From NCBI GenBank assembly GCA_000091205.1, contig AP006499.2: a stretch of DNA of 64,000 nt; one strand, given 5' to 3'. Source of the DNA: Cyanidioschyzon merolae. Taxonomy: Eukaryota. The notes beneath the pieces are model-generated. The model saw nothing but the letters and a program-made list of their open reading frames with translations, made no database searches and had not been told where the DNA came from. Numbering within the stretch: position 1 is the first letter of the stretch; each line of letters opens with the position of its first letter. This document shows positions 1 to 29,960 of the stretch, piece after piece. The position numbers and the translations under genes are program-made.

Positions 1-1856
1 AAAGCGTAGAGGCCCTTCAACTAGTCCGAAATGTTCTGAACCAGGAAGCGAAGGGTGGAACGGGAACAACGCCCCCAGAGTGCGCTTCATGAAGCCCTCG
101 AGATTGTACGCGCATGTTGTTCGAACCTGGTTTGATGCTTTTCGGCACCCGACCTGTGTGTGTTTCGATCCCCGGGGTGGCACGGCTACTTATCAAGGTA
201 TGCTAGGATGCGTGTGTGGAACTCCCTCTGATCTCAGGATCAGGTCGTATAGCATCCTCTGTCAAAAGCATGAGCTATGTTGCCGCACGTAGTTTTCATC
301 GAAAACTTCTAGAGGAATACGGGCAATAGGCAGCCTTGTGTCCGCAAGTCTCTCGAGAAGTCGCCTGAGGATGTGCGTTGAGGCGAGACTTCCGTGAGCA
401 AGAAGCTTCGCGACTCGAAATGGTGCCCTACATACCACGTTTACGACGATACCGGATGTTGATGTGTGTCAGGACGTGGCATCTTTACGATGGTTTCAGA
501 CTAATCTTTTCGCTCCGACAGCTTTCGCTTCGGGTCACTCGTCGCCTAGTTTTGGAGGATCTTTTTCCTACTTGAACGGTTGTTTCTTCTCCTTCCACTT
601 TACGTGGCAGGATGGGATCTACGTGTTCAGGATGATCAACATCCGTTTTTCCACTAGATTAGGATACCCTAGGCGGAAGTTTTGTTCGAAGCTCTCTTCT
701 CTATGTACGCATCTTCTGCTCCTAAAATATCTTCTGGTCCGCTTCTCCGTCGCGAGCATACCCACAAAAGCGAATAGCGCGTTTCTGCTCGCTTCTGCGC
801 ACGAGCAGAGGAGCAACCGAGCAGTTCACGACTGGTGGAGGTACCAGAGAATTACTTGCCGAAGAACTTCGGTGACACGGATGCGGACCACACGCCGATC
901 GATCCGTGTGTGTAAAAATGCCGTTCGATAACAGAGGAAACGCCTGCCATATGGTTGAACCAGGGAGCATTCGCTAGCACGAGGATCCACTCAACCCGTC
1001 TCGGCTGCGTTCTACTTGACTATTTTCGTGCGATGCAAAGCGACGCCGTCTTCGGGCAAGACAAAAGAATGTGGGCAGAAGACGTCACGAACGGTGGTTT
1101 GACGGAGAACTCGTTTTTAAACAATCCGTTCCGTTTAACGGTTTGATGGCGAACATCCGAGTGAATCGCCACTGGTGCCCAGGTTTTCTTCCTGCTCGTT
1201 AGTCTCCTCATTACAAGCAGCGGCTTCCCCGTCTTTGGATACCTGTGCACAAATCTACCATTTCATCCGGATGGTGCCTCGTCGAGTGAGACGAACAGTC
1301 ATACCTCCTGTACAAGGCATTCGCATTCCAGTACCAAGTCGATCGTGTGCTTTTCGACGTGGAGCGATCTCCCATACGAGCATACCGACTGCTTTGTCCA
1401 TCCGTGTCTCTTCATCAGCGTGCGTATCAATCGCAAGTAGACTTTACGTCCAGTGGCTTCTTTCCTAGTGTTTCTCAGGGAACGCATGGCGCATTATGGA
1501 TTGACGAGGCGACAGTCGTGTCAACCGAGTTTGATAAGTTCCGTCTCGAATGCACGACGTTCAGGGTATCGGCTACGAGGCGAGTGATTCATCCACTTGC
1601 TGGCCGTAGAATCACTGACTTGTACAAGTAAAGACGTTTTCGGACGCTATCAGTGACAGCAACAGCTCTTTCCGCGACCCCTATTCCAATCTACAGCATA
1701 CATTCCTTTAAGTGAATACCTGCAGGAAACCAAACCGAAGCAAAAACGGAGCGCTTGTACAGGCGTCTCAGAATTCACTGGTCTGCCTACAACTCCATTC
1801 TCAACGAATACCAGAGAAACGTGGGATCCGCGCATGCATCCGCCCACTCGATCAAC

Positions 1857-2849
1857 TTAGGATTCGGGTTCGATGAGGCCCACGCCCCCATGCCTCCGGC
1901 GATAGACGACATTGACTTCGCCGGTGTCGGCATTGCGGAAAACGTAAAAATCATGATCGATGTAATCCAAGCAAAGTACCGCTTCCTCGACTGTCTGCAG
2001 CGGCATAGGGAAGCGCTTCTTCCGCACGACTTCGCGGCTCGGCTCGATACCCATCTCTTCCAGTTCAGACTCTACCTCTCGGCGATGCTTGCTACCTTCG
2101 TAGGGCGCTCCGTCATCCACCGGAACAGGGCTCGTTGCCGGCACGGAAGCCAACCCGTCCATGGACTCCACAGGTGCGCTCGGAGAGGATGCTCGGGTCC
2201 GTCGGTCTTCCAAAAGCGCAACTTCGACCAGATCTGCAGTGGGACTGTGCTCATGCAATCGCTCCTTGTATTTTCGGAGCGTGCGCTTCAGTTTATCTGC
2301 TGTCAGATCTATCGCAGCATACATATTCTCCATTTTTACAGACGCACGAAGCACTCGCCCACGCGCATACGCCGTCACTTCGCAGTCGTGCGCGTTCTTG
2401 ATGCGCGGGTTATGCGCCACAGACAGGTGCACTTCGACTCGGGTCACCAGTCCTGGAAACTTTTCCACTACGTGCCCGATTTTGTCCAGAACATGTTCAC
2501 GGAGCGCCGAAGTCAAGTCAATATTATCGCCGGTGACCGTGATGGGTGTGGTTGTTGGCGCACTCATGCGCAAACACCTCGGCGAGGCGACTCGGACGCG
2601 ACTGTTGCCGAGTCTGGTTACCGGGCTTAGCGCAGGTACCTGCTGCACGCTGCTACCGTGGCGGCCACCTGACACACCACAACTACGCGTACGCAGTTTC
2701 AAGAACCATTGCGTTCTGTTGGAGAAGAGCACGCTGCTGATGAAAACCATGCTGTTTGGCGCTCTTTGGACACAAGGCCGAGTATTCGCGCGGCGTCTAC
2801 CGCGAGAGATACTTTCGCGACGGCAGATCATCGACGACGCCGGCCGCAA
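1857..2849 (-). CDS. hpf: Long-form ribosome hibernation promoting factor (bacterial HPF / plastid PSRP1-like) with an N-terminal extension of about 100 aa
   Basis: The N-domain 'ITVTGDNIDLTSALREHVLDKIGHVVEKF...MYAAIDLTADKLKRTLRKYKERL' matches the RaiA/HPF fold. The C-domain 'MPLQTVEEAVLCLDYIDHDFYVFRNADTGEVNVVYRRRHGGVGLIE' matches the long-HPF dimerisation domain. The N-terminal Ser/Arg-rich leader looks like a targeting peptide. The true start could instead be the internal Met at 'MSAPTTTPITV'. Confidence 0.85.
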   Translation of the reverse strand: MRPASSMICRRESISRGRRRANTRPCVQRAPNSMVFISSVLFSNRTQWFLKLRTRSCGVSGGRHGSSVQQVPALSPVTRLGNSRVRVASPRCLRMSAPTTTPITVTGDNIDLTSALREHVLDKIGHVVEKFPGLVTRVEVHLSVAHNPRIKNAHDCEVTAYARGRVLRASVKMENMYAAIDLTADKLKRTLRKYKERLHEHSPTADLVEVALLEDRRTRASSPSAPVESMDGLASVPATSPVPVDDGAPYEGSKHRREVESELEEMGIEPSREVVRKKRFPMPLQTVEEAVLCLDYIDHDFYVFRNADTGEVNVVYRRRHGGVGLIEPES

Positions 2850-3841
2850 CGTCGCAACGCACCTGGACTGGGTGCCGGCGCTCGCACCAGCACCGATTGC
2901 GCGCCATCCTACATGCGGATGTCGATATTGCTGGTACCGTATTGACCGGTGTGCTGGATCGACTGGGCGTTTCTATTGACCAGGAATCCCCGCAACTGCG
3001 CAATGCTTATCGAAATGCGGGAAAGCGTCCGTTATTCCAGGCCCTGGCCCTATGTTCGACGAGCGGCTAGCCATGCTTCCCTTCACAGTAGCTGCTCAAT
3101 GCATACGCTAGCATCGAGCGGAGGATCCTGATCGGACGTTCCCGGATTTGCAGACACAGTGAACGTTCAGCGTACAGAGTTTTGAATGTGCAGGGGAACG
3201 TTCACGTTGCATAGCATTCAGAGCAGTGCGTATGAATCCCCTTCTTTTTTGAGGTTCAAAAGCGGTGAATCTAGCCGGAGTACCTCGTACGCGCCGATGT
3301 ATCTAGACGCTCCCGGCAAAAAAGACGACCATATCCCTCCAGACGCTTTTGCATTCCACCGGCTCAAAAGCAGTCTTCCCTGTCGCGCGCCGTGGCACGA
3401 TCGAGTTGTCGACCCCGCAAGTACCAAGCTCTTTGCGGATGCTCCTCGGAGACTGGGGGCAACCCCTTTGGCCAGACCTAGCGGGATATCAGGCTCGGAG
3501 GTTGCCGCGTGCGACGTGCCAGCAAGCCGAGCTTTACCACAAGCGCAAAAGCATCCATAGGAATTTGCTTCGATGTATCGATGCCACATCGTACGCGTGA
3601 GGAGCTCGCGTCGGCCGTCGCCTCTGTATCGACCGTTTCGATCACGCGCGCACGCAGCGCGCGCCATATGGCCGTCTGCCGCTGCAGTGCACGCATCGGC
3701 CGTTCTGGGATGCGTGCTGTGTTGCGTGCACGCACTGCACGCATGCGCTGAGATGCTGTCCAGTCGTACAGCGCTATAAACAGCGTTGATGTTGCTGCAA
3801 GTTGGTGCAATTTGGTCTATCGTGGAAGATAAGAGAGAGTT

Positions 3842-6811
3842 GTGATGAGCACGGCTTGGACGCCACGAAGATCCCGTCGCTCAGGAGATCGTTTCATTCC
3901 CGTACGGGAACGTGACTCAGCGCTCGGACTTGACAGCACGCAACTGCGCTTTCAACTGCAGGTTGCAACAGAGCTTAGTTTTCAAGGTAGGAACACTCCA
4001 TCTCGAGACATTGCTGCTGAAAGTGAGAATAACGCCTCAGATGTGGGACAAGTGACCGAGTCCAGTCCGTCTCGGAGGCTACGAGACACGTCGCCGATGC
4101 ACCAGCGTCGGCTCTTGATGGCAGCTAGGGCACGCCACGTTGAGGGGAGCGAGGCGCTTGCGACTTTCGTTCCTGGCCACCAGATAGAGTCGGAACTAAG
4201 CCTGGCGCAGGCAGCCGAGCGGTATATTGAGAACGCACGGCGGGATTGGTCTGATATCTTCGGGGCTAGTCCAAGCGCTCCGGCACTACTGGTGTCAGGG
4301 TCAGAACGCGCTGGACAGCGCTCGCTGCAGTTAGAAACATCGCCTGATGCGGATGAGGGCACACTGACTTACCAAAGTCGCCTGGGTCGGAGCGTGAACG
4401 AGCCACCAGTGGAATCGTCTCGAGAGTCCGGCACGAGTCCGAATCGGGGTCTAGCGGCCGCAGAGCGCGCTGGAGTGCGAGCTGAGCTCGAGACCCTGCT
4501 TGCAACACTCTCTGTTGGCAGAGCGTCCGATGCACGTAATGGAGCATATGATGGGAGCGAGCGTCCAGCACGAACATCGCGGGCAGAGCAGCCCCCGGCA
4601 CGTCGTCAGAGCCGGCGTGAACGAGAGCTCGCGGATCTCCTGGAGCGCATGGACCGCGAGCAACGCGATGCAAACCACAGCGTCTCGTCGTCGTCCCGCA
4701 GTTCCACTGTAGAGCAAATCCGTGCTCTGCTACAGGCAGCAGCAGAGCTCGGTGATGCCGCTGATGACGTGGCGGTAGTTGATCTGGCAATGGAGCTTTT
4801 CGCGGACCCACGAGCGCTCTACTCAATGGAAACGCTTAGGGGAAGCGTTCAACACTTGGCAGGAACGCTCATGCGGGGTACATTGGCAAGCCCCGGAGGC
4901 ACCGGCATCTCGAGTCTCGCGCCTGGGATGCTTGCCACGGATGTGGGCAGCCGAGTCACAGAGCTTCAGGGCGTCATCACTTGGTCAGAGGGCGGTACCG
5001 TGACGCGTCCAGGCGCAGCAAACGCCAACGCGGTTCTGGCCCTGAGCGCTCATTTACCGCCGCATGCGCAACATGCTACGATCGAGTCAGCTACACGATC
5101 TGCGAACGAAGCTGCATACCTCACCCAGACCAGCGGAACCGGAGGTGCTGCACCGAATACTTCCACACCGGGGATTTCGCCGAGTACGACCGGGCGATTC
5201 GTTGTATCAGCGCCTGGTGGGCCATCCACGTACGCGATCATCCTGGAGAACGAATTGCTGCACGAGGTGAATACGACGCGCACTGAGCTCGCTACCGATA
5301 TGGATGCACTCGTTGCGGAGAATGAGAGTACATCGCCAACGGAACCACCACCGAGCGGCCGTCGTCCAGAACCCGGCTTTGGACTGGCCACGCCGCCCCG
5401 GCACTCGAATCCGACCCGAGCAACAAGAAACTCGCCAGTGGCCGCCTCGCCGGGAGCCAGCCACGTCTCGAGCTCGTCCGCGACACCAGTGGTCGCTCGT
5501 CGCAGCTTGCTGGAATTCTCTCGTCAGGATACCAGTGTGCATGAATCGAGCCCGTCGCCGCGTCATCGCCAGTACTCAGAGAATAACGGCTCACCGATTC
5601 GTCTCGATGCTTTGCGAACATCGCCTGTGCTTGCAGCGGATCCAACCATTGCTCGTCAACTTGGGCTTGGCCTGAGACGGAAACAGCGGAAAATAAGCAG
5701 AGTCCCCTTTAAGGTATTGGATGCTCCAAATCTCGCGGATGATTTCTACCTCAATCTGCTCGACTGGTCGGCCCGGAATATCCTCGCTGTTGGGTTGGGC
5801 AATTCCGTCTATCTATGGAACGCCTATAATTCCAAAGTATCCAAGCTGTGCGAGCTGGATACCCCGCCCCAAGGTGTCTGCTCCGTGTCGTGGGCACCGT
5901 CCGGTGACCTTATTGCTGTTGGGCTAGCCTCCGGGGTGGTCCATCTGTACGATCCGACACGCCAGGAGGCAGCCCAGATGCTAACCGGACACACGGCACG
6001 CGTCGGGTGTCTCGCCTGGAACGGGCCGCTGCTCGCAAGTGGCTCACGCGATCGCACGATCATGGAGCACGATGTTCGTGCGGGCAGAGAGCCAGTGCGA
6101 ACACTTGAAGCGCATCGCCAAGAAGTTTGCGGCCTGCGTTGGAGTTTCGACCAAACCCAACTCGCGAGCGGAGGCAACGATAACAAACTCTTCATCTGGA
6201 CACCGCAAGCGCGACGCCCGCTCTTTAGATTTGAAGAGCATGAAGCGGCAGTGAAGGCGGTGGCTTGGTCCCCGCACCAGCACTGTTTGTTGGCTAGCGG
6301 CGGCGGCACTGCGGATCGATGTATCCGTCTGTGGAACACAACCACCGGCTCCTTGCTCCAGTGCGTGGACACCGGATCCCAGGTTTGCAACCTGCTCTGG
6401 AGCCGCGCCGTCAACGAGCTCGTAAGTACCCATGGCTATTCCCAGAATCAGATTGTGCTTTGGCGATACCCGAGCATGCAAAAGGTGGTCACACTCACCG
6501 GACATTTGCTGCGTGTGCTGTACTTGGCTGCCAGCCCCGACGGTTCCGTTATAGTAACCGGTGCGGGCGATGAAACCTTGCGCTTTTGGAACGTTTTCCC
6601 GCCGCCACGAAGCGCTGCTCGCATGTCGCAACAACGAGCGGCCTCATCGTTGTCACCGTCGCGTCTGGGCGGGACGCGATCGCTGTACGCAGCGGCGTTG
6701 GCGGACCTCACGACGCTGCCGTCTGCGTACGCACCAACACCCAGTCAAGCGTCACCGATGCATGATCTCTGGAATACCAGCGCGATGATTCCGAGTTCAT
6801 TCATTCGTTGA
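3842..6811 (+). CDS. Cdc20/Cdh1 (Fizzy)-family APC/C co-activator with a ~600-aa low-complexity N-terminal extension
   Basis: There is a C-box 'DRFIPVR' at residues 16-22. There are seven WD40-like repeats from 'FKVLDAPNLADDFYLNLLDWS' onward. The C-terminus ends in a canonical IR tail, '...IPSSFIR*'. Residues 30-600 are Ser/Ala/Arg-rich low complexity. Confidence 0.8.
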   Translation: MMSTAWTPRRSRRSGDRFIPVRERDSALGLDSTQLRFQLQVATELSFQGRNTPSRDIAAESENNASDVGQVTESSPSRRLRDTSPMHQRRLLMAARARHVEGSEALATFVPGHQIESELSLAQAAERYIENARRDWSDIFGASPSAPALLVSGSERAGQRSLQLETSPDADEGTLTYQSRLGRSVNEPPVESSRESGTSPNRGLAAAERAGVRAELETLLATLSVGRASDARNGAYDGSERPARTSRAEQPPARRQSRRERELADLLERMDREQRDANHSVSSSSRSSTVEQIRALLQAAAELGDAADDVAVVDLAMELFADPRALYSMETLRGSVQHLAGTLMRGTLASPGGTGISSLAPGMLATDVGSRVTELQGVITWSEGGTVTRPGAANANAVLALSAHLPPHAQHATIESATRSANEAAYLTQTSGTGGAAPNTSTPGISPSTTGRFVVSAPGGPSTYAIILENELLHEVNTTRTELATDMDALVAENESTSPTEPPPSGRRPEPGFGLATPPRHSNPTRATRNSPVAASPGASHVSSSSATPVVARRSLLEFSRQDTSVHESSPSPRHRQYSENNGSPIRLDALRTSPVLAADPTIARQLGLGLRRKQRKISRVPFKVLDAPNLADDFYLNLLDWSARNILAVGLGNSVYLWNAYNSKVSKLCELDTPPQGVCSVSWAPSGDLIAVGLASGVVHLYDPTRQEAAQMLTGHTARVGCLAWNGPLLASGSRDRTIMEHDVRAGREPVRTLEAHRQEVCGLRWSFDQTQLASGGNDNKLFIWTPQARRPLFRFEEHEAAVKAVAWSPHQHCLLASGGGTADRCIRLWNTTTGSLLQCVDTGSQVCNLLWSRAVNELVSTHGYSQNQIVLWRYPSMQKVVTLTGHLLRVLYLAASPDGSVIVTGAGDETLRFWNVFPPPRSAARMSQQRAASSLSPSRLGGTRSLYAAALADLTTLPSAYAPTPSQASPMHDLWNTSAMIPSSFIR

Positions 6812-7178
6812 CTTGTGGATGCACCAACATCCAATCACGCGTCACCGATGCATGATCTCTGGAATACCAGCGCGATGATTCCGAGTTCATTCATTCGTTG
6901 ACTTGTGGATGCACCAACATCCAATCACGCGTCATCGATGCATGATCTCTGGAATACCAGCGCGATGATTCCGAGTTCATTCATTCGTTGACTTGTGGAT
7001 GCACCAACATCCAATCAAGCGTCATCGATGCATGATCTCTGGAATACCAGCGCGATGATTCCGAGTTCATTCATTCGTTGACTTGTGGATGCACCAACAC
7101 CCAGTCAAGCGTCATCGATGCATGATCTCTGGAATACCAGTGCGATGATTCCGAGTTCATTCATTCGTTGACTTGCGC
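6729..7178. repeat. 90-bp tandem repeat, 5 near-identical units, beginning inside the last 30 codons of the Cdc20-like CDS
   Basis: The unit 'gcaccaaca(c/t)cca(g/a)tca(a/c)gcgtca(c/t)cgatgcatgatctctggaataccagcgcgatgattccgagttcattcattcgttgacttgtggat' repeats at about 6729, 6819, 6909, 6999 and 7089. Each unit encodes '...SPMHDLWNTSAMIPSSFIR' plus a TGA stop. Confidence 0.9.
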
Positions 7179-10364: not shown

Positions 10365-10759
10365 AGCGCTACGTAGCGCTCAGTGGTGCGGTTGTTCCGC
10401 GTCCGTTTGCGAGTGCCGGTGGTTCCGACGCAACTGGTTAGTGAACGAACCTGCTCGAAAACTACCTCGATCAGTTAGCTTGATGAAGATGCGCACGACG
10501 GACGTCGCCCTCCACGAGTTGCGGTGCTGCTCGCGAGTGCGCAGAACGCGAAACGGTACGCGTAGCACGAAACGGCATGCGCGCTGTTGCTGCACTGCTT
10601 TTGTGAAAGACTGTACCATTAGGGTACAATAAGGAATATATTTGAATCAAGCGGACTCGATATTGGAATGACGCGTGTCCAGCGCTGGGATGACCATCGC
10701 CTGTTTTCCCTAACGCTACAATACTTTTGTGTGACAAAAACGTGTACATAGGCCCGCGT

Positions 10760-10974
10760 TTGCAGACAGCGCGGTTGATATCAGCTCGCTGTGAAGCATC
10801 AATGGTTCCACGCCCTACTTCCAAGTTCCATAACCCACTCTTTTCTCGGATACACTGGTGGTTTTGTACGTTCTATCGTGCATGTCGTGAGCACACGCAT
10901 TAGCGCTTGTAGCGCCGCTGCGGTCGGGGCATGGACATAGAACGGCTATGCCGTACCCCAGAGAGTGTCGGCTA
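10760..10974. repeat. Dispersed repeat family 'R2', truncated copy A (5' ~200 bp only), directly abutting Tc1-like copy 1
   Basis: The segment 'gaagcatcaatggttccacgccctacttccaagttccataacccac...agcgcttgtagcgccgctgcgg...gccgtaccccagagagtgtcggct' is alignable at about 70-80% identity to 33650-33880 (+) and to the reverse complement of 29770-29960. Homology stops at about 10974, where Tc1-like sequence begins. Confidence 0.55.
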
Positions 10975-11433
10975 AGGATGGTGGACGGAAACCCAGTAAC
11001 AGGTGCCTCCCAGCGTTTTTTGTTCGGTGGCTTTTTATTCGTTTCAGTTTCTCCGCGCGCGCGCGCACTTCGAGCCGGAGAGGCTGCCCCATGACGAAGG
11101 ATCCCGCCAGCTCCTCGGGCCGCGACTTGAGCACCGCACATTGTCTGATATTGACGGCAGCGTTGAGGTCTCGGGTCACGAGCTCCCTGCGTTTATTGCC
11201 TGTGGTGGAACCCATCAACGCAAGGATACATTGATCTCGGAAACTCAATGCGAATACAGCCTCATCATTGCCCCGTCTTGCGAGCAGATTTTCTGTCTCC
11301 ATCTAACCTCTTTTCCTTCGTCATTTGTTCTTCTTCGCTCTATGGTTAGCACGAAGAGGATTTTGGGGGTTTTGGCGAACTCGGTGACACCGAGCCTCCA
11401 GGAAGCACGAAATTCACATCCATACCTTTCCAT
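10946..11433 (-). pseudogene. TnpB/Fanzor-like C-terminal (RuvC-III) relic downstream of the Tc1-like transposase
   Basis: ORFs 11245..11433(-) and 10946..11302(-) contain '...KILFVLTIERRRTNDEGKEV...' and 'ILALMGSTTGNKRRELVTRDLNAAVNIRQCAVLKSRPEEL'. They align with 'ILAMVCPSSVNARNEFMNRDFNHAINIRRF' (copy 2) and 'LAILALMSSTKCTERMEIVSRVFNPAINFRRF' (copy 3). 'PSSKxC...RDxNAAxNI' is the TnpB/Fanzor zinc-finger/RuvC-III signature, but the zinc finger is collapsed and no RuvC-I/II is evident. Confidence 0.45.
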
Positions 11434-12450
11434 TCGATTTTTTATTTCTTCAATTGAACGGAGCGCATTATGCCCTTAGGTGAGTACTGTCCCGCAGGGA
11501 GAACAGATTGCTTAAGAGAGACGACATGTGCCTCGACCTGAACGTGCTGAGCGCTTCAGCGATTCGCCCAATGGAGGGATCATTGCGTTTCACACAAGAA
11601 AACCATTCTTCGATCGGTTGGAGCCACGGGGCATACAGAGGAATGAATAGCAGCTCGTTTCTCCGACAGATTCGGCAAAAGCTCAAACAAAAGGGGAATC
11701 TTGGAATACGGCGCTGTCCAATAGAAGGACGTCGCCATACGTGAGGGAAAAGTCTTCAATGATTCGGCAAAATAGGTGCTGTTGCATGAGCCTTCTCCAC
11801 GAGCGAAACTGAGGTCGCCAAATGAATCCACTGCAGTTAGAACGGACTGCGTCTTCGTTTTTTCCGCGTTTCGTCGTACGTACAAACGTTTCTTTGTACT
11901 CGGATACCCCATATCTGCTCTGACGGTTTCGAGGGTAGCAGGTCTCATGTAATGAAAAAACAATCCAACGTCGCCCTGCTTCGTACCGATCCCAACGTTC
12001 CAGGAACGCTGTTCTCGCGATATCTGTGCAAGATGGCCATGTGTCAACTACGACTTTTTTCCAACTGTAACCCAGTGTTTTCAGCACCACACGAACGAGC
12101 GGCTGAGAAAGAGAGACGCCCCTATTGGCCACAATCGTTGCTCTTGCTTCCAGGAACATTTTCAATGAGTCGTTTCCTACCATTGACTGCAAGCAGTCTG
12201 TGACCGTTTCGGTTTCGGCGCGGAGAACATGGAACGCTTTTTCTCAGCGTTCGTCAACGATCTGAGCACCGCCGAATGACCGACCCGAGTCAGGAATGCA
12301 GTCCTCCCTGTACTGATCAGTAAAGAATATACATCGTACACGCAAATCTTCTGCGATCTATACGGCACATTTCATGATCATTTCAATATCCTGCTGTACG
12401 TCGCAGGCGGCACGAAACAAAAATGAGTTGAAAGACTATAGGTCCAGTCC
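10974..12450 (-). mobile_element. Tc1/mariner (IS630-Tc1, DDE_3)-like DNA transposon, decayed copy 1, with a 3' TnpB/Fanzor-like relic ORF
   Basis: Frameshifted ORFs on the minus strand give an HTH region, 'LKTLGYSWKK', 'WIVFSLHETCY' (first D region), 'LLLDSAVFQDSP' (DNAxH-like) and 'LLFIPLYAPWLQPIEEWFSCVKRN' (the PPYSPDLNPIE...W..LK signature). Downstream is an ORF with 'STTGNKRRELVTRDLNAAVNIRQ' (TnpB RuvC-III-like). The whole unit is homologous at DNA level (~75-80%) to 57700-59050 (+) and in part to 20650-21350 (-). Confidence 0.65.
11468..12420 (-). pseudogene. DDE_3 (Tc1/IS630-family) transposase pseudogene, frameshifted
   Basis: Pieces lie in ORFs 11683..12192, 11580..12047 and 11468..11686 (all minus), with the motifs listed for the parent element. 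At least two frameshifts separate them. Confidence 0.6.
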
Positions 12451-14155: not shown

Positions 14156-15793
14156 CTAGTCCCGTTGTATGTGATTGTCAAGCCAGGTGCGCAGCTGATC
14201 CATTTCGCTTTCATGAAGAACAAGGTTTGCCTGAAATAAGCACTCTGCGGACATCGGTCGATGACGTTCCATCATGCGAATGCAGGCCTCGTGCCCCGGA
14301 TACGCTGGATCGAATGAGGTCCCGTTCAGGTGCAGAACTTGGGCCATGGCATGGCGCGATACCCCGAGCATGATTGCCAAGGCAGCGTACATGTCAGGCT
14401 TTCGCGCCAAAGCTGGAAAAAGCTCGATGTTCACCACATGGCGTGGTTTCCCGAGCGAGAACAAATGCGACCACTCTGCGCCGTGCATCGCGATCAACGA
14501 GCGACGCTGGTGCACCGCGACGTACTGGTCGCACCACGAGAGTTCCCCAAAATCGGGAATGTAGTCTGCATCGAGTCGTTCTGCCAGCTGATCGCTGTTT
14601 AAAAGACGCCGCCGCTGCGAGCTGCGTCCCAGAACGACGGCTGGCCGCGCTGGACGCTGTTTTGCGCGCTCCACATGCTCCTTCGAACATTCCTTCTCGA
14701 AAAACTTGAATGTGGCGAGGCGAAAAGCCTCCAGTAACCATGGACGAAGCGCGTTCGCTGCAGCGCGTTCCGACGCACTTATTCCATTCAGGCCTTTCGA
14801 ATTCGGATTGTAGGTCCAGTCCCAGTTCCGTATGGGTTGCTCGCGCGCACCAACAGATAGGTCGCGAAAACACCAACCCTCCGCATCAGACACGGGATAG
14901 GGAAGTCCAACATCTCTTCCTATGAAATAAACATCTTCAACGAGGCTATGGATCATACGGATGACTCGAAGGAGTCGTTCGCGTCCGCCATTCGGTGGAA
15001 ACCCGCTCTGCCCGATGTCACGCAGATCGAAGACAACCACAAACGGCAGCGGATACAGCGTCGGGTCCTGTTCAATGTGACGCACAAGGTTCACTTTTTC
15101 GAGCATGAGTAACGTTGCAACCAGTGGATACAGGTAGTCCACAGTGGTATGGGCTAGGTTACGAAGCCCGAAGTGCGACGGTCGAGTGAGCACCGCCGTT
15201 CTCGCCTCGAAACGCCTGCACAGCCGCAGCGGTGATGTTCCGTCCGCGTGGGCGCCGTAGAACTGAGCTTCATCAAGCAACTTAACGTTTTGCGAGGCGC
15301 TATAGTAAGAGGACATCACGGTTAGGAAGTGGCTGGTAGCGGTGCTGTTTGGCGAGACCGACGCAGGAGCGAGGACTTGGTCTCCGGTAAGGACGGCTCG
15401 CGACAAACGTAAATAGGGCAACTTCGTAACGCCTTCAAAAGTGCTCAGGTTCGGAGGAGCCGCCCCGTCCGACATAAACGGTGGAAGCCCTGGCACGTCT
15501 GTGGCAACGCCACTAGAGGACGTCGGCCGGGAGCCAAAAGGAAAACCTTGGCGAGCGCCCAAGGCTCTCAACAGCAGAATCACCCACGCGGTGAGAACGA
15601 CTCCGCCTAGCAGTCGGATCCATAGAAACTCGCGAGACCGCTCTATCCGTCGCACTAAACCCCGTATGCCAGCAGCCATGGAGCAGTGACGCACCTCGAG
15701 AGCTTCTGGGTGAAGCGCGTCGACATGAACAGGCCTCGAACGCCCGTATTTTTTGAAGGAGAAAGTCGGGTTTCGAATAGACACGTTTCTCAT
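14156..15793 (-). CDS. GT61/DUF563-family glycosyltransferase-like type-II membrane protein (paralog A)
   Basis: There is an N-terminal TM 'FLWIRLLGGVVLTAWVILLLRAL'. 'AHTTVDYLYPLVATLLMLE', 'CFRDLSVGAREQPIRNWDW' and 'LIAMHGAEWSHLFSLGKPRHVVNIELFP' fit the GT61 'HGAxL.N..F' C-terminal signature. It is a clear paralog of 16304..17863. Confidence 0.7.
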   Translation of the reverse strand: MRNVSIRNPTFSFKKYGRSRPVHVDALHPEALEVRHCSMAAGIRGLVRRIERSREFLWIRLLGGVVLTAWVILLLRALGARQGFPFGSRPTSSSGVATDVPGLPPFMSDGAAPPNLSTFEGVTKLPYLRLSRAVLTGDQVLAPASVSPNSTATSHFLTVMSSYYSASQNVKLLDEAQFYGAHADGTSPLRLCRRFEARTAVLTRPSHFGLRNLAHTTVDYLYPLVATLLMLEKVNLVRHIEQDPTLYPLPFVVVFDLRDIGQSGFPPNGGRERLLRVIRMIHSLVEDVYFIGRDVGLPYPVSDAEGWCFRDLSVGAREQPIRNWDWTYNPNSKGLNGISASERAAANALRPWLLEAFRLATFKFFEKECSKEHVERAKQRPARPAVVLGRSSQRRRLLNSDQLAERLDADYIPDFGELSWCDQYVAVHQRRSLIAMHGAEWSHLFSLGKPRHVVNIELFPALARKPDMYAALAIMLGVSRHAMAQVLHLNGTSFDPAYPGHEACIRMMERHRPMSAECLFQANLVLHESEMDQLRTWLDNHIQRD

Positions 15794-16303
15794 CGAGAGG
15801 CGTTGCGCACCGGCGGCGATGGTGCATACGTTCGCGCGTACCTGACACTCAACGCACCGGCATGCCGTTCAACCAACAAACCCTGCATAACCGGTATACA
15901 GTAGTGGCGAGAAACACGCTCTGGACAGAACGTCTCTCCGCAGGCGGCAACGATGGACTTTTGCATGGCATTCGTAGTTGAAAGCGGTGATTCCGTCCGC
16001 TGAATATGAGCGTAAACGTCGCAGGGGTCCTCGAGGTCACTCTGGTAGCTTTTGGAAGGCTTTACACGGACGACGCGGGGGAACTCGCGAAACCTGGTCG
16101 CCAGAGCCCGTCACAATGGCTGATGGAGTCAGTCTTTTCAGCGTTCCCACGAGAAGCGCCCTTCGGATATGCTCGGTCGCTGTCCTGCATGGAACTGGCA
16201 AAAAGGCAGAATTCTCAAGGCGCTTTTCGAAACGCTGGAACCCTAAACCTGAAAAGCGAGCTTAGCGCGTATCTCAAACCAGAAACACTGCGTGCCATGA
16301 TAT

Positions 16304-17863
16304 CTAATCTTCCGCAAGAAAGCGCACGATTCGTTCCTGGTCATACTCCGAAAGGACGATGTTCGCGTCGAGGCAACATCGCCCCGGTAGGGTGCCACGT
16401 ACACTTGTGTGATTGCGGTACGCGTCGAGGCAGGTGCGTTGCTGAGGGTAACGCACATCGAATTCCATGCTGGTTCGATTGCTCGTTTGCAGCTTCATAT
16501 GGTGCATGACGCCGAGATATCTAGCGATCGACGCATAGAAGGTCAGTGGCGCCGCGCATGGAGGGAAAAGCTCAACGCTGCGCAGACGGGATGGTTTTCG
16601 AACGAGTAACAAGTACGACCACTCAGCGCCGTGCATCGCGACAATGCCGCTCGCATCTCGAATAATGGTATATTGTAAACACCATGGCAGATTGCCAAAC
16701 GCCTCAACATACTGAGCGTGCGGTATGCGTCGGACCAGTGCTGTTCCATTGCGGAGTTGTCGTCGAACAGAGCCGCGCCCCAGAATCCATATAGTGTGTC
16801 GGTTTTGGTCGCGTTGCGGGCGCTCTCCGAATAAGTCGTGACTCGGGGTGATCACTCGTTTGCGATCGACTGACTTCGACGAACACTCGCGGTCTGCATC
16901 GTTCCGCATAAATGCGCTGAATGCCCGCAGCAGCTTTCCCCGCTGGGCATCCATGGATCGGGACAGTTCCAGGAGATTCCAGTTTGAGTGCCTGAGATTT
17001 TGCTCCCTCGCACCAAGTACTAGATCACGAAAACAAAAAGTCGATTCCAGAGCTCTGCCCATGGATCGGAACTCCAGATTCGGCGTCAAGCTGGTGCTGA
17101 TGCCGCCAAGGCGGTGCAGCAGGCGACGGCCATCTGGTGGAAGCCGAAGAGCGCTGCGGCCCGCTCGTCCCAAGCTCGTTGTATCGAAAATCAGACGCGG
17201 CGGGTAGACACGCTGACGGACCCAATCTAGCGGATTGCGACTGAGCAGCCGCATCGTGACGTAAAGAGGATAAACGAGATCGAAGGTCCAGTGAGCCAAA
17301 TTCTTCATCACGAAGGGAGTCAGCGGTTGATAGAGGGTTGTCCGGTGCTCCCAGCCACCGTCTGTTCGCTGGCATTCTGCTTCGAATGCCCGTTTTTCGG
17401 TTTCATTCACGACGAAATGTACTGATATGTACGCGGAGCGATATGCGGTGCGCACTCTCAAAAGCGTGCGTTCGTTCAGGAGAAGCGCGTCTTCGTCAGC
17501 TGTCGAGCTGCTACGGCAGGCGTCGAGTGAGCGGCACAGCACGAACACCCTTCGCTCCGTACCAGATACTCTCAGAACAGCGTCGCGCACTCGAGCGTAC
17601 GAGACACTCCAAGTACCGGTTCCGTTCACAAACAACGGCAATCGGCGAGAGAGCAGATCTTTCTCGAACTCGCGCAACGCATAACGGGCGCTTCGGACCC
17701 CTCCGCCGTAGAGTTTCCACTCATAGACGGCAATCTGAACCAACACCGCGACGCCGAGCACGCTCCAAACTACACGGGAAAGAAGCCGCAAACGGACACG
17801 TGCACAGAAACGTCTGCTCAAGTCTGAAACACGCTGCTTGTTTGGCGAGCACCGCCTATACAT
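16304..17863 (-). CDS. GT61/DUF563-family glycosyltransferase-like type-II membrane protein (paralog B)
   Basis: There is an N-terminal TM 'VVWSVLGVAVLVQIAVY'. 'AHWTFDLVYPLYVTMRLL', 'CFRDLVLGAREQNLRHSNW' and 'IVAMHGAEWSYLLLVRKPSRLRSVELFP' match paralog A colinearly, on the same strand, ~500 bp apart. Confidence 0.7.
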   Translation of the reverse strand: MYRRCSPNKQRVSDLSRRFCARVRLRLLSRVVWSVLGVAVLVQIAVYEWKLYGGGVRSARYALREFEKDLLSRRLPLFVNGTGTWSVSYARVRDAVLRVSGTERRVFVLCRSLDACRSSSTADEDALLLNERTLLRVRTAYRSAYISVHFVVNETEKRAFEAECQRTDGGWEHRTTLYQPLTPFVMKNLAHWTFDLVYPLYVTMRLLSRNPLDWVRQRVYPPRLIFDTTSLGRAGRSALRLPPDGRRLLHRLGGISTSLTPNLEFRSMGRALESTFCFRDLVLGAREQNLRHSNWNLLELSRSMDAQRGKLLRAFSAFMRNDADRECSSKSVDRKRVITPSHDLFGERPQRDQNRHTIWILGRGSVRRQLRNGTALVRRIPHAQYVEAFGNLPWCLQYTIIRDASGIVAMHGAEWSYLLLVRKPSRLRSVELFPPCAAPLTFYASIARYLGVMHHMKLQTSNRTSMEFDVRYPQQRTCLDAYRNHTSVRGTLPGRCCLDANIVLSEYDQERIVRFLAED

Positions 17864-20649
17864 GGCCGACTAACCTGCATACCTGGTACGAGCTGGAGAT
17901 ACGACGGGACACCCGCGAGACTCGTTCGCGCCAGATGCGTGATTCGTCCACGGCTGGACACGTGTCCACACAGGTCCAGCCGCCGCTGATTCACGCGCCT
18001 TGATTTAGCCGCTTGGGTGCAGCGCATCCGAGTTGCGGCAGAAACGAGAGGATGTTATGGCTATTTCTGTCCAGATTCTAAAGAGGACCTGCGCTTGCAA
18101 TCGACGCCGTCCCTTGTAGGAGCGCCGGATGGGCAGCATGTGCTGCACCAATGCTGGTAGTTGCATGATCCCCGGCTCGTATACGTTTACGCGATAATGC
18201 CGTCGGAGCGGGAAGCGGCTGCAGCGTCACCGGATACGTCAGAGACGACGCTGAGACGGGTGATTCGTCAGACGCGGCTCGTTTGTGGAGATCTAGCTGA
18301 GAAGCCACTGGTACAGGCCACAATAGTGCACCCAGAACGGACGCTGTACGCCGTGGACGCTGCCTTTTCGAGAGCGGTTTCCGTTGTAGTCCGTAGGACT
18401 CGCGAGACGTTGGCTGGAGCTAGTCCACTATTGCCCGTTGCAGCGCTTGGTCTTAGCTTCTGGGGAGGCGCTCGGGTATACCGTCGCCTTCGTGAGCTCG
18501 TGCTCCCAAGCACGCAGCAGAAACTGCCTACAACTGGTTTACATCAGGCGAAGCGCGGTCCGTAGACTTTCTCTCGCTGATCATCGTCGTATTATCTGTA
18601 GAGTGCAGTCGGACGGGAGACTTGTGGAGGGCCACGTAGAGCAATCTGTCAAAACGCTGGGGTGGAGGCTACGCGTTGTACTTGTTTTCGCGCTGTATCG
18701 CGGTTCAGAGAGGTTTTCGTCCCGGAGCGCGGAGTGCTCTTGTCGAACCAGAAAACTGACGTTGTTATACATGGGGTATGCGGCGGAACCGTTCACAATG
18801 TGTCGGCTAGCGTTTCTGTCTCGACAAAAAAGCCTTCATTGGTGAATCCATCGCTGTTAACGTTCTTGCAGTCCGAGTCCATAGCGGAGATATTCGACGC
18901 GGACGTTCACGTGAACGGGTTCATGAACCTAGTGCATGTGGTTGCAATAGGAAAGATTCTGCAGTAAAGTACGCACATCACGTCGAGCGTGCAACACTCG
19001 TATGATCAGTCCCGGGGCGCACGATGCCAGGTTTTGTTTGCCGGTGTCGCCTGCGCAAGCGCTGTGGCAATGGCAGGCGCCAGGATCGGTGCTGTTACCG
19101 AAAGAAACGCGGTCCGCTGTAGAGAGCGCGCTGAATATAACGACGCTTCGGTGGTGTTCCTTGGATCGTGTGGCGACATCCAGAACCGTTGCGACAGTAA
19201 CGACAAGTGGTTTCCATGAAATCTTTGATTAGAATAATCGTGCCGCTCACTGACGGATGCACGAGCGGACAAGGAAACATCGAGCGACTTGTTACAGAGA
19301 GCAGAGCATCGACTTTGCGCTGCAGGTGTGCAAAGTTCTTTTTACCGATACAGGATCCCATCTGGAGGAGTTGGCCCCTCTGGATCATTGCATCATGGTG
19401 ATGCGTTCTCGTTTACGCAAGTCATCGAAGCCCATTCCCAGCTTCAGCTGCGAATCCCACCTGTCGGGCTACGGCTTCTGTATGTGGATATAGTCGAATG
19501 CTTTTTCGTGAAAGGCACGGAACTTGGTCTCACGGAACCCACCACAAAAGGAAAAAGTCTCTACCTCTTCGCCATGCAACTAAAAGCGTGCAGGAAAAAC
19601 TGTCTGAATGGGTCTCATGGCATTCTTGCCAGCCGCGGTCGAAGCAGGGCCCAGGTGCAATACCGCGCCCGGAATCGTCTTCGGTTTCGTGTGCAACTGT
19701 TGTTCACTGCGACTGTGCGCTATTCGCAGCGGGTAGTTTCGGAGTATTCAAGCACGTCCCTTGGTATCCAGCTTCCTGGGAATCTCTTGCATTGGCTACA
19801 ACATCTAACCAAAATGCCAACCTGAGTGGGCCTGACTCGCCCACAGGGCGCTACATTCTGGACGGGAGGTCCCGCGGAACAGATGCGTCCGCGGAGTCAG
19901 TGCTCTGCGCGCAGCCCCGGTGGTGCATGTCGAGGAGAAACCCGCGCGGCCCGACCGCGACACAGCTCTTTTTGGACGACGGAGGGCGGCATTCCGCGCC
20001 CAGGCTCTGCTCTGGTCGCTGAGTCTCTTTAGCGTATCTTTCCACGCCGCTCCGACAGCAGACCTGCGTGCGTAGACTGTTGCCGCCCAGGCGAAAGATG
20101 AGTCCCGGTCCAGTGCCGCAAAACGTGCACATCGAACTGGCATCCGTCATGGCACCGCAACGCCGTTTCGTCCTTGAATGATGACTGGATCAGGCGCCGT
20201 ATCCATTGTCGCAGCAAGCGCCTAAGATATGCTCGGCTCCTGGAGGGTCTTTTCAGCGAGCCTCTCTAGTTTGGTGACACACTGGTCTGGGTTCGTTGGA
20301 GCGTGGAACCATCCCTGGAGAGGTACTGCAGTCTCCGCCCCGAGACCAAAAGCGTCCAAATTGCCCAGAGCATCTGTCTCTATGCAGACCTTTCCGCACC
20401 TAAACAGAAATGCTATGGCGAACTTCCGCGCCAGTCGGAGTTCTCCCAGGGTCCGATGCCTGATCAATCCTCTATTCTGTTGGGGAACACAGCTCAGATG
20501 TTGGCGCAATGATGGGCGACTTTTCTCAGATCGATGAAGCTCATCTCTTCAAATGATTGCTATCACGTACATGGACGAATGAAAAGTGTACCGTCGGCAC
20601 TTAGGTTCACCAGCCAGACTATCGCACAAACGAACCAGTTTGTCTAAAC

Positions 20650-21350
20650 GGAAGCATCGATGCTGGTAACTGATGGAACTTTGAGGTCTTCTCCGGCGTC
20701 ATCGATACTCCCTTCGATACGTATATCCACCTAGCGATCGGGGATATACTTGGATTACGTTCACAATCGTAATCAGTGACACGAAAAATGTCCCACGATT
20801 ATCAAGTGGACATACGTACACCCACGCGCAGATGCTTCCCAGCCTTTTTTGATCGGCCGCTTTTATCGGTCTCAGCTTCTCCCTGGAGGCCTCGAGCCTG
20901 AGAGATTCCTCGATAAAATTGGATCGCGTCAGCGCTTCGGGTCTCGTCTCGAACGCCATGAATCGTCTGATATTGATGGCGTGGTTGAAGTCTCGGTTCA
21001 TGAACTCGTTGCGTGCATTGACACTGCTTGGACACACCATTGCAAGAATTGGTAGAGCTCGCGCCCTCAGTGCCACTGCAGTCTCGTCATCGTCCCGTCG
21101 AACGAACATCTTTTCTCGCGTATCTGCAACCGTTTTCATCTCCGTCAGTTGCGCTTCATCGCTCGATGATCGGCGAGAAGAGTTTTTTCTTTTTCTCTTG
21201 AATCCGGCAGGGACGACCCTCCGGGATCCCCGAATCGCACGCCCATGCTTTTCTCTCGCATTTTTATTTTCGAAAATGAACGCACTTGGCAAGCATCTGC
21301 TATACACCGCGAAAAGGCATCTGATGGCACCCGCCTGGAGCGTAGAACGC
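20650..21350 (-). mobile_element. 5'-truncated copy 2 of the Tc1-like/TnpB-like element (3' part only)
   Basis: ORF 20699..21352(-) is 217 aa. It contains 'RCLFAVYSRCLPSAFIFENKN' (the transposase C-terminal tail), 'KRKRKNSSRRSSSDE', 'ILAMVCPSSVNARNEFMNRDFNHAINIRRFMAFETRPEAL' and 'ESLRLEAS', colinear with copies 1 and 3. No transposase core is present upstream of 21350. Confidence 0.55.
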
Positions 21351-21639
21351 AATTGATATGAACGATTGCGACAATCCTATACATGCCCCCGCAAACAAGC
21401 GCCATCGCCGCTGCGCGATCGCGCGACCGCACTTGCGGCGACACGCGTACCGGTCAACGTGCGATCATGAAACGTGCGCGTTGAGCGATTGCGCAGCGTC
21501 GATGGCGCTCAACGGCGAATGCCAGCCGTTGGAGACGGCGACGCACGCACGCGAATGCGCCTCCATGCGTCCGTGACGGCGTCTCGACGAGCCGCGAGCG
21601 CGATTGCGTTACGCGCACTGAGCCACTCGTTGGCCGGAT

Positions 21640-24815: not shown

Positions 24816-27639
24816 GAGGTTTCACTGGCGCCTTGCGCTTGGATGAAACCAAGCGTCTGCGTCTCTTGTAATTCTCATGGTGATGGAAACTTGAATTTCG
24901 TGATTCCTCTGAAAATGCGGCGGATTTAATGGAAAGATCATCGCGATTATAAACCCGATCTGAACGCAATATGGTTTTCTCGTGCTTCGCAGTATCCAGG
25001 GCGTCTTGTTTTCCAGCGCGCGCAGCGAAAGCGTCGAGACCAGTTTGCGTCGTGCATGAAATCAATCGCAAATAGGGGCACAGCTGCAGCACTATGCCGG
25101 GTAAGCGATCCCGTGTGCGATAGAAGCGACCATTTCCGTATCTCGACGGCTCACGGGGATGCTGCTGATGCGGATTTCGGATCGATGGGGATTCGGCTGT
25201 CGCACCGCATACGGCAATGGCGTCAGGGCAGGTATCGCAGGGCTTGTTCCTCTCGGTATGCGGAATTTGCCAGGTCCGTCTTTGTATCGTCAGTGAATTC
25301 TGGTATACCTGAACCAGCAAACGGGTTTCGTTTTGATTGTCTTTTCACTGGAATTCAGGAAAAAGAATGTATTTTGTAGATTAGAGAAAAGTCGCGGAAA
25401 TACTTGATGACGTAACTGCCAGCGTGCGTGAAATACGACGTTGCCTGTACGGGTCAGTCATTCTGCGTTCAACAGGTGGATGTATCACGCTTCGCGTCGT
25501 GTTCTTCCTGAACGCCGTGCACCGAAAACAGAGCGTATGAAATGTTATATGCACAATTTTCTCTGTGTCAATCCATTTTATTTCATACGTTCTCTAAGAA
25601 CTAGTCTCAAAAAGCTGTTGAATGGAATTTTTATGGTCCGTCGATAAGAACGGCGGTGAAGCGACGCGAATCGACAACCTCTAAAGCACGCTTCTCTGAG
25701 GGAGCAACGCGCGGTGAACATTGCACTATCGATTTCGTTGTGAGAAGCGAATACCGGCAACGGTAGGGTCGGGTTTTCGTCTGACTCGAAGAGGCTTTAT
25801 GCTGAAGAAATCGGAGATTTGGATATGGGCACTTGTAGAACGGCAAACCGCTGCTCGTAAACAAGAGACGAGCGAGCATTCCGTAAACATCAGGCCAAGC
25901 GGCGAGTCCATGGTGTGTTCACCAACGAATCGCCAACTGGACAGGATCCTTCATTACATCATCCATCGTTGAAGCACTCTGAGAATTCTCCATCCCAGAT
26001 TCTTCCGTCTTGCTCGTAGACAACGTCGCTTTCCGTCGTTCGAAAGCGGTCAAGTAGAACGCGGCTGAGGTTCGTGTTGAGCGGTTTCCGTACCTGGATT
26101 CTCTGCGCGGCTCTATCGCGTCGAAGGCACCTCGCTGTTGTCAAACGCCTTGTCCACGTCTACGAGTCCATGGACAAGTCGTTTCGCATCCGGTACTCCG
26201 AAAGACTCAGGACGCCTCTAGGGTGCGCCTGGCTTCGAGCTCGATGAAGTCTCGTATAGCTTCTCTCGTGTTGACGCAAATCGTCAAGTAACAGCTCGTA
26301 CCAGTTCTGGACACCGGGCTACTAGCTGTCCATGCTCCTGTGGAATATTTCGGTCAAACTTTTTTCTGTGAAACAGCACGACCGACGCTCGCGACGGAGG
26401 ATGCAATACGGTCTGATAGCAGGATCAGGGATTGCCACACACGATTCCCAGGATATCCTGACGCGTCGCTGCGCTACGTCGACGATGGGAACGTCTATCA
26501 TGCCAATGACCGCAAGCATCGAAACGAACCTCCAGAACCAGATGCGGGTCAATCTCGAGCGCTTCATGAGGCGCATCCCGCTGGCGTTGCTCCCGTTATA
26601 CGCTCACTCTACTGGCCCGGAATATTCGGGGCCGATGGAGTGGATTCTTCGCTTCAGTGAGTACATGAGCGTCCATGTGACTTGAGCGGTCGATCTTTGG
26701 CAGAAGTACATGAGATCGTGCTAGTGCCATCGACGGTTTCGGGTGTACGGAGGCAAGATACATGCTTTCGCCAACTTGTTCAGTGAGTTGAAAACGTACA
26801 CAACAGACAACTCGTGTCGTTTGGTGAAGGTAGCTCGCGTTGCTGGGCATGCTTTAGCGGTGTAGGGATGCAATCCGGGTCCGTCGACGAAAACGTATTA
26901 CGAGTACTGGACTCGATGCTGCACGATTCCCATCAATACGATCACGACGACATACACGAATCACGAGCACGGTAGCACGGTAAAATACATGTGGAAGAAG
27001 AGAGGGAAACGGAGCTGGATGCCCTATATGATGTACGGTAAGGTGCCCGAAAGATAGATGACGAGGCAATCGCAGGCGGGAGGCTTGCGATGGTCTGACT
27101 CCACGAGCAGCGGTGCGCGCGACCACCTTCTGCACCAAGACTTGGGCGCCGCGTTCAACATCCGAAAATTTCTCGTGCTTCTGAACCGTCCAGCTGTTTT
27201 GCACGAAACGAATTGTCAAGAGAATTCTTTAGTACCCAGTGTGGGCATTGTGCTGAAACGCTGACGATTCTCTAAGAAAAAATCAGAGCGCAGGAAAGAG
27301 CGAATTGAAGTTTCCAGCTCATCAAGGCACTGATGTGGAACTTTACAGCAATCCAGGAATGCTGCAACACCGTATATCTACATCGACAACTCTATTCCTC
27401 TGTGAATGGGGATTTATGACGGTGTTCCATGAATCGGTACCATGGAGGATATTCATCGTGCCTGGCGATGACCACGGGACCCCGGTTCAGCGCACTACGC
27501 GTGTCGCGCGAGATGCGGACAGCGCACCCATGCCCTGGATCCGACCGATACCATAAAGGACAAAAAGGACACAACATCTCGAAGCACGCATGCCCATCGT
27601 CAGAGACGCGTGTCTAGTTCGAAACGTGCATCTACTTTG

Positions 27640-29151: not shown

Positions 29152-29464
29152 AATTCAAGTCCAGTCTTCCCGGTGACTGCGCCGCGCTCCCCAAGGTTTA
29201 CCCCTTTCAAGGGTTTAGGAACGATGAAACGAATCGAACACTACTGAAGGCGTGACTGCTGCAGCTACCCAGCGACGCGTCCGGCATTCCCGCTACCGCC
29301 AAGCGCAAGCATCTGGTTTCTACGAACTTTGGTATGAAAAGCGTCCGCAGCGCCGCGGCGCATCCTGTGCGCCGGTCGCGCTCGAAGCGCCTCTGAGGCG
29401 CAGCTCGTACGCGTGCCGATCAACTTTGTGCCATCGGGTATGCCTGCTTCGTGTTCACCATGGT

Positions 29465-29960
29465 ATACGAGTCTTGCCATCTAGGCGGGCGGTCCCGCGA
29501 GCTGGACGAGTCGGCCGGGCTTGCGCCCCATGCGCCTCTCCAGTGCCGGGTACCGTGGTGAGATCTGAGCAGCTCGTCCGCTCCCCGTCCGTTCGGGACT
29601 ATGAATGGAAAGGCGGTGTCTTGGCGATGCTCTGGTCGCAGAAGCGTCCTAGCGTATCGCTTCGCGCCGCTGCAGGCAGTAGGTCTTTCTGCACAGACTG
29701 CAGGCTCCCAGAAATATGATGGATCCCGATACTGTGACTGGTTAACCGCACCTTGAGCCGACGCCCTCCGTGGTACAGCAAAGCTGTTCTGTCTCCGTGT
29801 TCCACATGCACACCAGCGATATAGGCGCTATGGCGGCGGGCTGAAAGCAGGCACTCGGTGCATGATGGAACGTACAAAACGACCAGTGCACCAGAGAGCA
29901 AGTATGGGTCACGGAAACTGGAGGTGGCATGTATCATGATAGGAACTTTTCCGATTGCGG
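29465..29960 (-). repeat. Dispersed repeat family 'R2', copy C (reverse orientation)
   Basis: The reverse complement aligns over ~500 bp with 33650-34190. Examples are 'gggatccatcatatttctgggagcctgcagtctgtgcagaaagacctactgcctgcagcggcgcgaagcgat' against 'gggattcaccatcattctaggagcaggcaagctgtgcagacagacctattgcctgcgacggcgcgaagcgat', and 'ggacgagctgctcagatctc' against 'ggacgagttgctcaggtctc'. The shared ORF peptide is 'GDRTALLYHGGRRL...IGIHH...SVQKDLLPAAARSD'. Confidence 0.7.

Follow-up and report, generated by a model that had tools for sequence, protein, structure and literature searches.

The dispersed repeat R2 is very probably the 5' non-coding module of the Fanzor1 transposon CMe-1A of Cyanidioschyzon merolae, a module that also occurs as the solo element TE-N2_CMe and in a form of about 260 bp, and its copies in the window (the whole stretch of 64,000 nucleotides of C. 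merolae DNA analyzed here) are in all likelihood old and dead. R2 is assigned to the left end of CMe-1A because the window copies align to the 5' end of the consensus. The sequence has already been described, both in Repbase and by Bao and Jurka (2013).

CMe-1A is a Fanzor1 (TnpB-like) element of 3.2 kb, a reclassification of an earlier C. merolae repeat; it is present in about 150 copies, which share about 80% identity each with the consensus, lacks TIRs, and its TSDs are undetermined (Bao and Jurka 2013, PMC3627910). According to the same paper TE-N2_CMe, an element with about 70 copies, corresponds over its whole length to the 5' 635 bp of CMe-1A, at 95% identity. R2 is equated with TE-N2_CMe because of this published statement and because length and boundary agree. 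The consensus used for all comparisons (Additional file 2, PMC3627910) has 3169 bp, with an ORF at 906-3110 on the consensus strand. The CMe-1A family is the "WSV486-like interspersed repeat" of the C. merolae genome papers, in which a 3.2-kb interspersed repeat with a WSV486-like ORF was found in 253 copies (Nozaki et al. 2007, BMC Biol 5:28). The only Pfam match of the CMe-1 consensus protein is a sub-threshold, Cas12f1-like TNB match (E 0.51), and its identity as a Fanzor is therefore based on published work and on the D-NAA-NI motif.

Copies of R2 in the window

Four copies and a small fragment of R2 are present in the window, together with an isolated piece of the other end of CMe-1A. Coordinates are window positions.

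10717-10982, plus strand: R2 copy A, short form, consensus 4-262, upstream T-run included
33626-34280, plus strand: R2 copy B, complete solo element of the TE-N2_CMe type
29420-30024, minus strand: R2 copy C, strong homology at 29474-30009, profile homology to about 29420
19852-20172, minus strand: R2 copy D, 5'-truncated and divergent, absent from the preliminary description
2968-3035, plus strand: small 5'-end fragment of R2 (68 bp), consensus 12-77, found by BLAST and by profile search
15864-15936, minus strand: isolated 3'-terminal piece of CMe-1A, consensus 3095-3168, 76% identity, E 1e-8 (BLAST)
32514-33239, minus strand: tetraspanin gene CMQ251C / BAM82137.1, ORF of 241 aa, sequence identical

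When the window was searched by BLAST with the consensus, copy B (33643-34276, plus strand) matched positions 4-640 at 77.7% identity (E 4e-141), copy C (30009-29474, minus strand) positions 4-535 at 78.1% (E 7e-118), copy A (10732-10982, plus strand) positions 4-262 at 68.8% (E 1e-30), copy D (20172-19852, minus strand) positions 214-534 at 62% (E 1.5e-18) and the fragment at 2968-3035 (plus strand) positions 12-77 at 72% (E 3e-5). An nhmmer profile built from A, B and C picked up copy D at 20168-19852 on the minus strand (E 1.2e-21) and, more weakly, a 5' fragment near 2961-3045 (E 0.002); its E value of 1.8e-81 for copy A is circular, because A is among the sequences from which the profile was built.

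The preliminary description had proposed that three intervals of the window are homologous, and this is borne out far beyond chance by self-BLAST, which pairs 29618-29916 with 34024-33732 (C with B; 72.6% over 299 nt, E 1e-38) and 10817-10977 with 29925-29751 (A with C; 68% over 175 nt, E 3e-7). Identity is slightly lower than the 70-80% put forward there: local pairwise alignments give 71.2% for A and B (257 columns), 66.8% for A and C (268 columns) and 67.8% for B and C (537 columns), that is, about 67-71%. A, B and C have a common start in a MAFFT alignment. The sequence blocks that had been quoted as shared are present, and two degenerate patterns derived from them match just the three copies A, B and C, with 0 matches expected from shuffled sequences. 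The count of three copies was too low, and the extents 10760-10974, 33650-34190 and 29465-29960 were too narrow. Beyond the end of A, where B and C had been said to continue for about 300 bp, another 380 bp or so follow in B and about 275-330 bp in C.

The window has a G+C content of 55%, with long, intron-free ORFs on both strands. Its CMQ locus prefix presumably places it on chromosome 17 of C. merolae 10D. Exact protein searches identified the tetraspanin ORF as that of C. merolae 10D and gave no match for the NSF-like ORF or for an ORF of 561 aa. Copy B is flanked by the tetraspanin gene CMQ251C and a nitrilase-family gene, and copy C by genes for an ARMT1-like protein and a HAD phosphatase. 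Six hot-spring metagenome contigs that carry the tetraspanin gene are 99.3-99.5% identical to 23-43 kb of the window. The window copies of R2 are intergenic and 22-38% diverged from the CMe-1A consensus; they are old, decayed, inert insertions without coding capacity.

Other repeats were noted in the window. The segments 987-1780 and 25291-26084, on opposite strands, form a dispersed pair (63% over 802 nt, E 2e-21) with neither CMe-1A homology nor a convincing ORF. Tandem arrays are found at 6731-7175 (90-bp unit, 4.9 repeats, 97% matches) and 50474-51076 (73-bp unit, 8.2 repeats, 96% matches), and a small array with a 14/28-bp unit at 39288-39372. A short match (77.5%) joins 14415-14493 and 16563-16641, in the neighboring long same-strand ORFs 14156-15793 and 16304-17863, and suggests that these are tandem paralogous genes.

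Age of the insertions

In Cyanidiococcus yangmingshanensis the syntenic locus (L118) preserves the gene order, and its genes share 70-78% identity with those of the window. Its intergenic DNA is too diverged to align, and the comparison is one of spacer length and absence of matches: the tetraspanin-nitrilase spacer is 729 bp long in C. yangmingshanensis versus 1287 bp in C. merolae, and no match to R2 or CMe-1A is present at the locus corresponding to copies B and C. As this locus has no such match, copies B and C are not detectable in C. yangmingshanensis, which fits their insertion in the C. merolae lineage.

Termini and forms of the family

Metagenome contigs were scanned with the pattern GAACNGCNNTGCNNTACC-N9-GTCGGC, which gave 110 loci. 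CMe-1A homology is present in 83 of them, mostly from hot-spring samples; the other 27 match the pattern only, without any CMe-1A homology. Among viral contigs the R2 pattern matched once; this match also lacks CMe-1A homology and is attributed to chance. Collapsing at 96% identity or more left 38 distinct R2 copies, the four of the window included. Since the pattern required consensus positions of about 232-264 in every primary match, the conservation of that block and the 5' completeness of the copies are partly artefacts of sampling.

In full-length metagenome copies, R2 precedes the Fanzor ORF and is co-linear with it, both running in one direction. The co-linear elements are listed by consensus extent.

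L059 and L095: full-length, 1-3088
L108: full-length, 1-3140
L113: 1-1743
L012/L107: 18-1021 and 1107-3007

No full-length CMe-1A copy lies within the window, where B is a solo unit and A, C and D are shorter versions or pieces.

Nearly all R2 copies start at consensus position 1-7 and are preceded by (G)A and a run of about 4-9 T, beyond which their sequences are unrelated. The 3' ends are discrete. Nine independent copies, which span at least four sublineages as grouped by reading the alignment, end at 253-262, and eight independent solo copies, with unrelated sequence downstream, end at 635-640. A few copies end at 280 and at 316-322, two at 581-582 and one at 682; ends at 534-544 are mostly places where the alignment of a divergent sublineage gives out. 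Some copies run on into the Fanzor ORF instead of stopping.

A short form of about 255-262 bp is represented by L085, L024, L076, L104, L027, L101, L097 (twice) and window positions 10717-10982. It ends in ..GGCGTCGGCTCGAGG, has unrelated flanks and is absent from the 2013 description. Copy A belongs to this recurrent short form. Its end, which had been called abrupt, is a family boundary and no product of the junction, because the end at about 253-262 recurs in nine independent copies with unrelated flanks.

TIRs, which the preliminary description had proposed to look for, are found neither at the ends of R2, where the 5' terminus (G)ATTTTTT..CGATGACAAAACG and the 3' terminus ..GTTTCTGTTCTTT are not complementary, nor around the Tc1-like copies. 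TSDs, TIRs or empty sites could be established for none of the R2 copies. A Helitron-like element, which would begin with 5'-TC, end in 3'-CTRR, be inserted between A and T and have a hairpin 10-12 nt from its 3' end, was considered and rejected. R2 reads ..TTTTTT(N)CGATGAC at the 5' end and ..GAAAGGCG, ..GTTCTTT or ..GGCTCGAGG at the 3' end; in the consensus a hairpin can be read 20-45 nt ahead of each 3' end, but CTRR is missing. The full-length 3' end is followed by TT in four of four complete ends (aligning to consensus 3166-3169). In one R2 copy (L063/L018/L080, for example L063 at about 800-850), the first 15 or so nucleotides are replaced by a tandem 16-nt unit, GATTCCATAGACCAGG, derived from the adjoining R2 sequence.

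The junction at copy A

Copy A abuts a composite of two degenerate genes, which has relatives elsewhere in the window.

10983-11453, minus strand: internally deleted Fanzor1 remnant (copy 1, neighbor of copy A), CMe-1A 882-1016 joined to 2849-~3100
11468-12390, minus strand: frameshifted DDE_3 pseudogene of the Tc1/mariner type ("Tc1-like copy 1"), upstream of the Fanzor remnant
20824-21362, minus strand: mini-Fanzor copy 2, consensus 794-970 and 2809-3088, without R2 at its 3' end
57582-59030, plus strand: DDE_3 pseudogene and mini-Fanzor, copy 3, without R2 at its 3' end

The name "Tc1-like" given earlier to this neighbor suits 11468-12390, whose stitched ORFs match Pfam DDE_3 (E 2.2e-12; 47.5 bits, cut-off 28.6); it does not suit the part that touches copy A, which is a remnant of the Fanzor C-terminus. 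The stitched ORFs of copy 3 likewise match DDE_3 (E 2e-11). Only such frameshift-stitched sequences gave the match, and single ORF pieces of the Tc1-like copy gave none in Pfam. By self-BLAST the DDE_3 pseudogene of copy 1 is 70% identical to 58906-57582. The ORF at 10946-11302 on the minus strand aligns with CMe-1 protein residues 652-731 at 46% identity (E 9e-20) and holds the RuvC-III motif RDLNAAVNIRQ. The Tc1-like family carries an internally deleted Fanzor, because its match to CMe-1A consists of two pieces only, at consensus 882-1016 and 2849-3020 in copy 1, and the same pair recurs in three copies.

The composite family (11000-12390, minus strand; 20824-21362, minus strand; 57582-59030, plus strand) is arranged as a DDE_3 pseudogene followed by the mini-Fanzor on the same strand. 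In the mini-Fanzor the first 35 or so codons are fused to the last 90 or so, and copies 1, 2 and 3 share this deletion. No transposase is listed for the Fanzor family of C. merolae (Bao and Jurka 2013, PMC3627910), and the association of DDE_3 with the mini-Fanzor may be relevant to the classification of that family.

The internal end of copy A (plus strand) meets the 3' end of the mini-Fanzor remnant (minus strand) at 10982/10983. The preliminary description had placed this point at 10974: homology to R2 extends to about 10982 (GTCGGCTAAGGATGGT), and the neighboring family starts at about 10983-11000. An alignment of the 3' ends of seven members of that family reveals a conserved tail, ..CATGGTCGTNGGACATTTTTCGTGTCACTGAT, and the tail of copy 1 is cut about 40-45 nt before the normal end. 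The lost tail is found neither beyond copy A nor around L044, alignment scores there being equal to those of shuffled controls. Nor was the remainder of R2 (263-635) found past the other end of the Tc1-like copy, by BLAST or profile search. At L044/L067/L084/L105 (for example L044 1401-2306), the 3' ends of an R2 copy on the plus strand and of a truncated mini-Fanzor on the minus strand face each other at a distance of about 25 bp; the R2 copy at this locus is a full one (4-635).

A clean nested insertion, with R2 copy A and mini-Fanzor copy 1 placed one inside the other, is unlikely. In its favor, the two are directly adjacent, within about 1-20 bp, and L044/L067/L084/L105 is a second, independent locus with the same arrangement. 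Against this, the tail is about 40-45 nt short and the lost piece does not reappear beyond R2 at either locus, no R2 263-635 lies past the far end of the Tc1-like copy, and the end of copy A coincides with a boundary that recurs throughout the family. A variant, insertion accompanied by loss of target sequence, may apply. The neighbor of copy A, truncated and on the opposite strand, is a remnant and not the parent of R2. The junction would be a scar left by rearrangement between two degenerate elements, in intergenic DNA rich in transposons, and probably represents a structural feature neither of R2 nor of the DDE_3/mini-Fanzor family.

RNA and structure

An element-encoded structured non-coding RNA, such as the guide (omega) RNA of the Fanzor, is very unlikely to be what R2 encodes. 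The interspersed repeats of C. merolae are reported to be transcribed (Nozaki et al. 2007, BMC Biol 5:28), and copy B folds modestly better than shuffled sequences (z = -2.5 on the plus strand, with 20 shuffles, and -1.4 on the minus strand). A hairpin at consensus positions of about 190-235 (columns 228-283 of alignment A2; 10893-10935 in copy A), present in several sublineages, also exceeds its controls. Its partners are paired in 68.9% of alignment cells versus 24-44% when they are slid, and double changes occur in 34 cells versus 17 +/- 3 in shuffles; three adjacent pairs differ between sublineages by the double substitutions CG/UA, AU/GC and UA/AU. These counts are inflated by kinship among the copies, and the structure was taken from one member of the alignment and is missing in one sublineage. 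The hairpin is a weak lead to a structural role in DNA or RNA. Another hairpin, ACGGC-NNN-GCCGT, which looked compensatory in copy C, was discarded, as it is mismatched in the main sublineage.

Other evidence speaks against an RNA. RNAalifold gave essentially no consensus structure for 37 distinct copies over the first 280 or so consensus positions (-3.3 kcal/mol, 6 pairs, covariation about 0). No Rfam family matched the window at the gathering threshold, or copy B even at E <= 1. Where Fanzor and TnpB systems have been characterised, their guide RNA is transcribed from the right (3') end, in a region that overlaps the ORF or comes after it (PMC10432273, PMC10530073). R2 (consensus 1-635, with the ORF at 906-3110) occupies the left end, separated from the ORF downstream by more than 270 bp, which is not the omega RNA position.

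Association with the DDE_3 element

The preliminary description had offered a choice between a nested event and R2 as the terminal module of a parent element. The latter is right in substance, with CMe-1A as the parent; the parent it had in mind and the geometry it assumed are not. That R2 is a terminal module of the Tc1-like (DDE_3) element itself is extremely improbable. Copy 1 is fused directly to R2 and one more locus is so arranged, but copies 2 and 3 of the window, L044b, L117 and L033 pass the junction point with their own conserved tail and have no R2 there. R2 is moreover in the opposite orientation, and neither an inverted R2 nor a TIR is present at the other end. The systematic association with the Tc1-like family that had been suggested as a check is not seen, as only 2 of the 38 distinct R2 copies adjoin a DDE_3/mini-Fanzor element.

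Coding capacity

A small protein-coding gene in R2 (GDRTAL..YH..RRL) is virtually excluded: ORFs of 119 aa and 131 aa do overlap B and C and have similar translations, but differences from the consensus fall about equally on first, second and third codon positions (52, 58 and 54 in B; 57, 59 and 49 in C), all six frames of the consensus are interrupted by stops, of which two lie within the peptide quoted earlier, indels between copies break the reading frame, no R2 ORF matches Pfam, and the exact ORFs are absent from a collection of 15 billion proteins. What had been described as a shared, non-annotatable ORF is no more than homologous DNA in translation.

A possible mode of copying

As the left end of CMe-1A, R2 would contain cis-acting sequences of the Fanzor1 family, through which machinery acting in trans may have copied both the full-length and the solo forms; the latter would be non-autonomous derivatives of CMe-1A. 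By analogy with characterised Fanzors, the guide RNA would derive from the opposite (3') end, and R2 would not be the guide. As read from the consensus, a hairpin precedes each of the 3' termini at about 258, about 636 and 3169, and the terminus at about 581 lies inside a hairpin loop. The fixed 5' end, the hairpin-preceded 3' termini and the TT after full-length ends together hint at one-ended, strand-specific copying (HUH, rolling-circle or IS200/IS605-like), in which R2 would be the recognized left end and the T-rich motif the Fanzor target or TAM; we consider this quite unlikely. The combination of a fixed 5' end with discrete 3' ends is a lead, and no answer, to the question of how a Fanzor1 element that has no TIRs, TSDs or transposase spreads.

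For this window, R2 is a matter of routine repeat annotation, as the family was published in 2013 and the parent repeat in 2004 and 2007. Its use for the annotation of C. merolae is that three "unknown" intergenic blocks, and the ORFs called in them, are transposon relics and not genes.

Comparison with known systems

The "ghost loci" of the Spizellomyces punctatus Fanzor (Saito et al. 2023) resemble R2 in being short, ORF-less and dispersed beside full-length copies. They are about 550 nt long and retain both inverted repeats and an omega-RNA-like right end, whereas R2/TE-N2 is a left end only and has no TIRs.

Fanzor1 elements of the Mariner/Tc1 type, such as PUl-1 of Pythium ultimum, are like the neighbor of copy A in carrying DDE_3 and Fanzor on one strand. 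Unlike these, the neighbor of copy A has two degenerate genes and an internally deleted Fanzor, and no TIRs or TA duplications were found. R2 lies outside its DDE_3 and Fanzor unit.

The "novel interspersed repetitive element" of Nozaki et al. (2007), the WSV repeat (253 copies, about 3.2 kb), belongs to the same parent family, and its truncated ORF, weakly similar to WSV486, is now recognized as Fanzor1. That description is of the ORF-bearing element, whereas the R2 copies of the window are left-end pieces without the ORF.

The closest counterpart is TE-N2_CMe, or the 5' 635 bp of CMe-1A, which has the same sequence, length and 3' boundary as R2 and does not differ from it in any essential respect. 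Both lack TIRs, are about 20% diverged from the consensus, and are dispersed and intergenic. The copies compared here extend the published TE-N2_CMe and CMe-1A by the short form that ends at about 255-262, by sublineages with a T-rich insertion near position 60 and, for CMe-1A, by the T-run immediately upstream of the consensus start.
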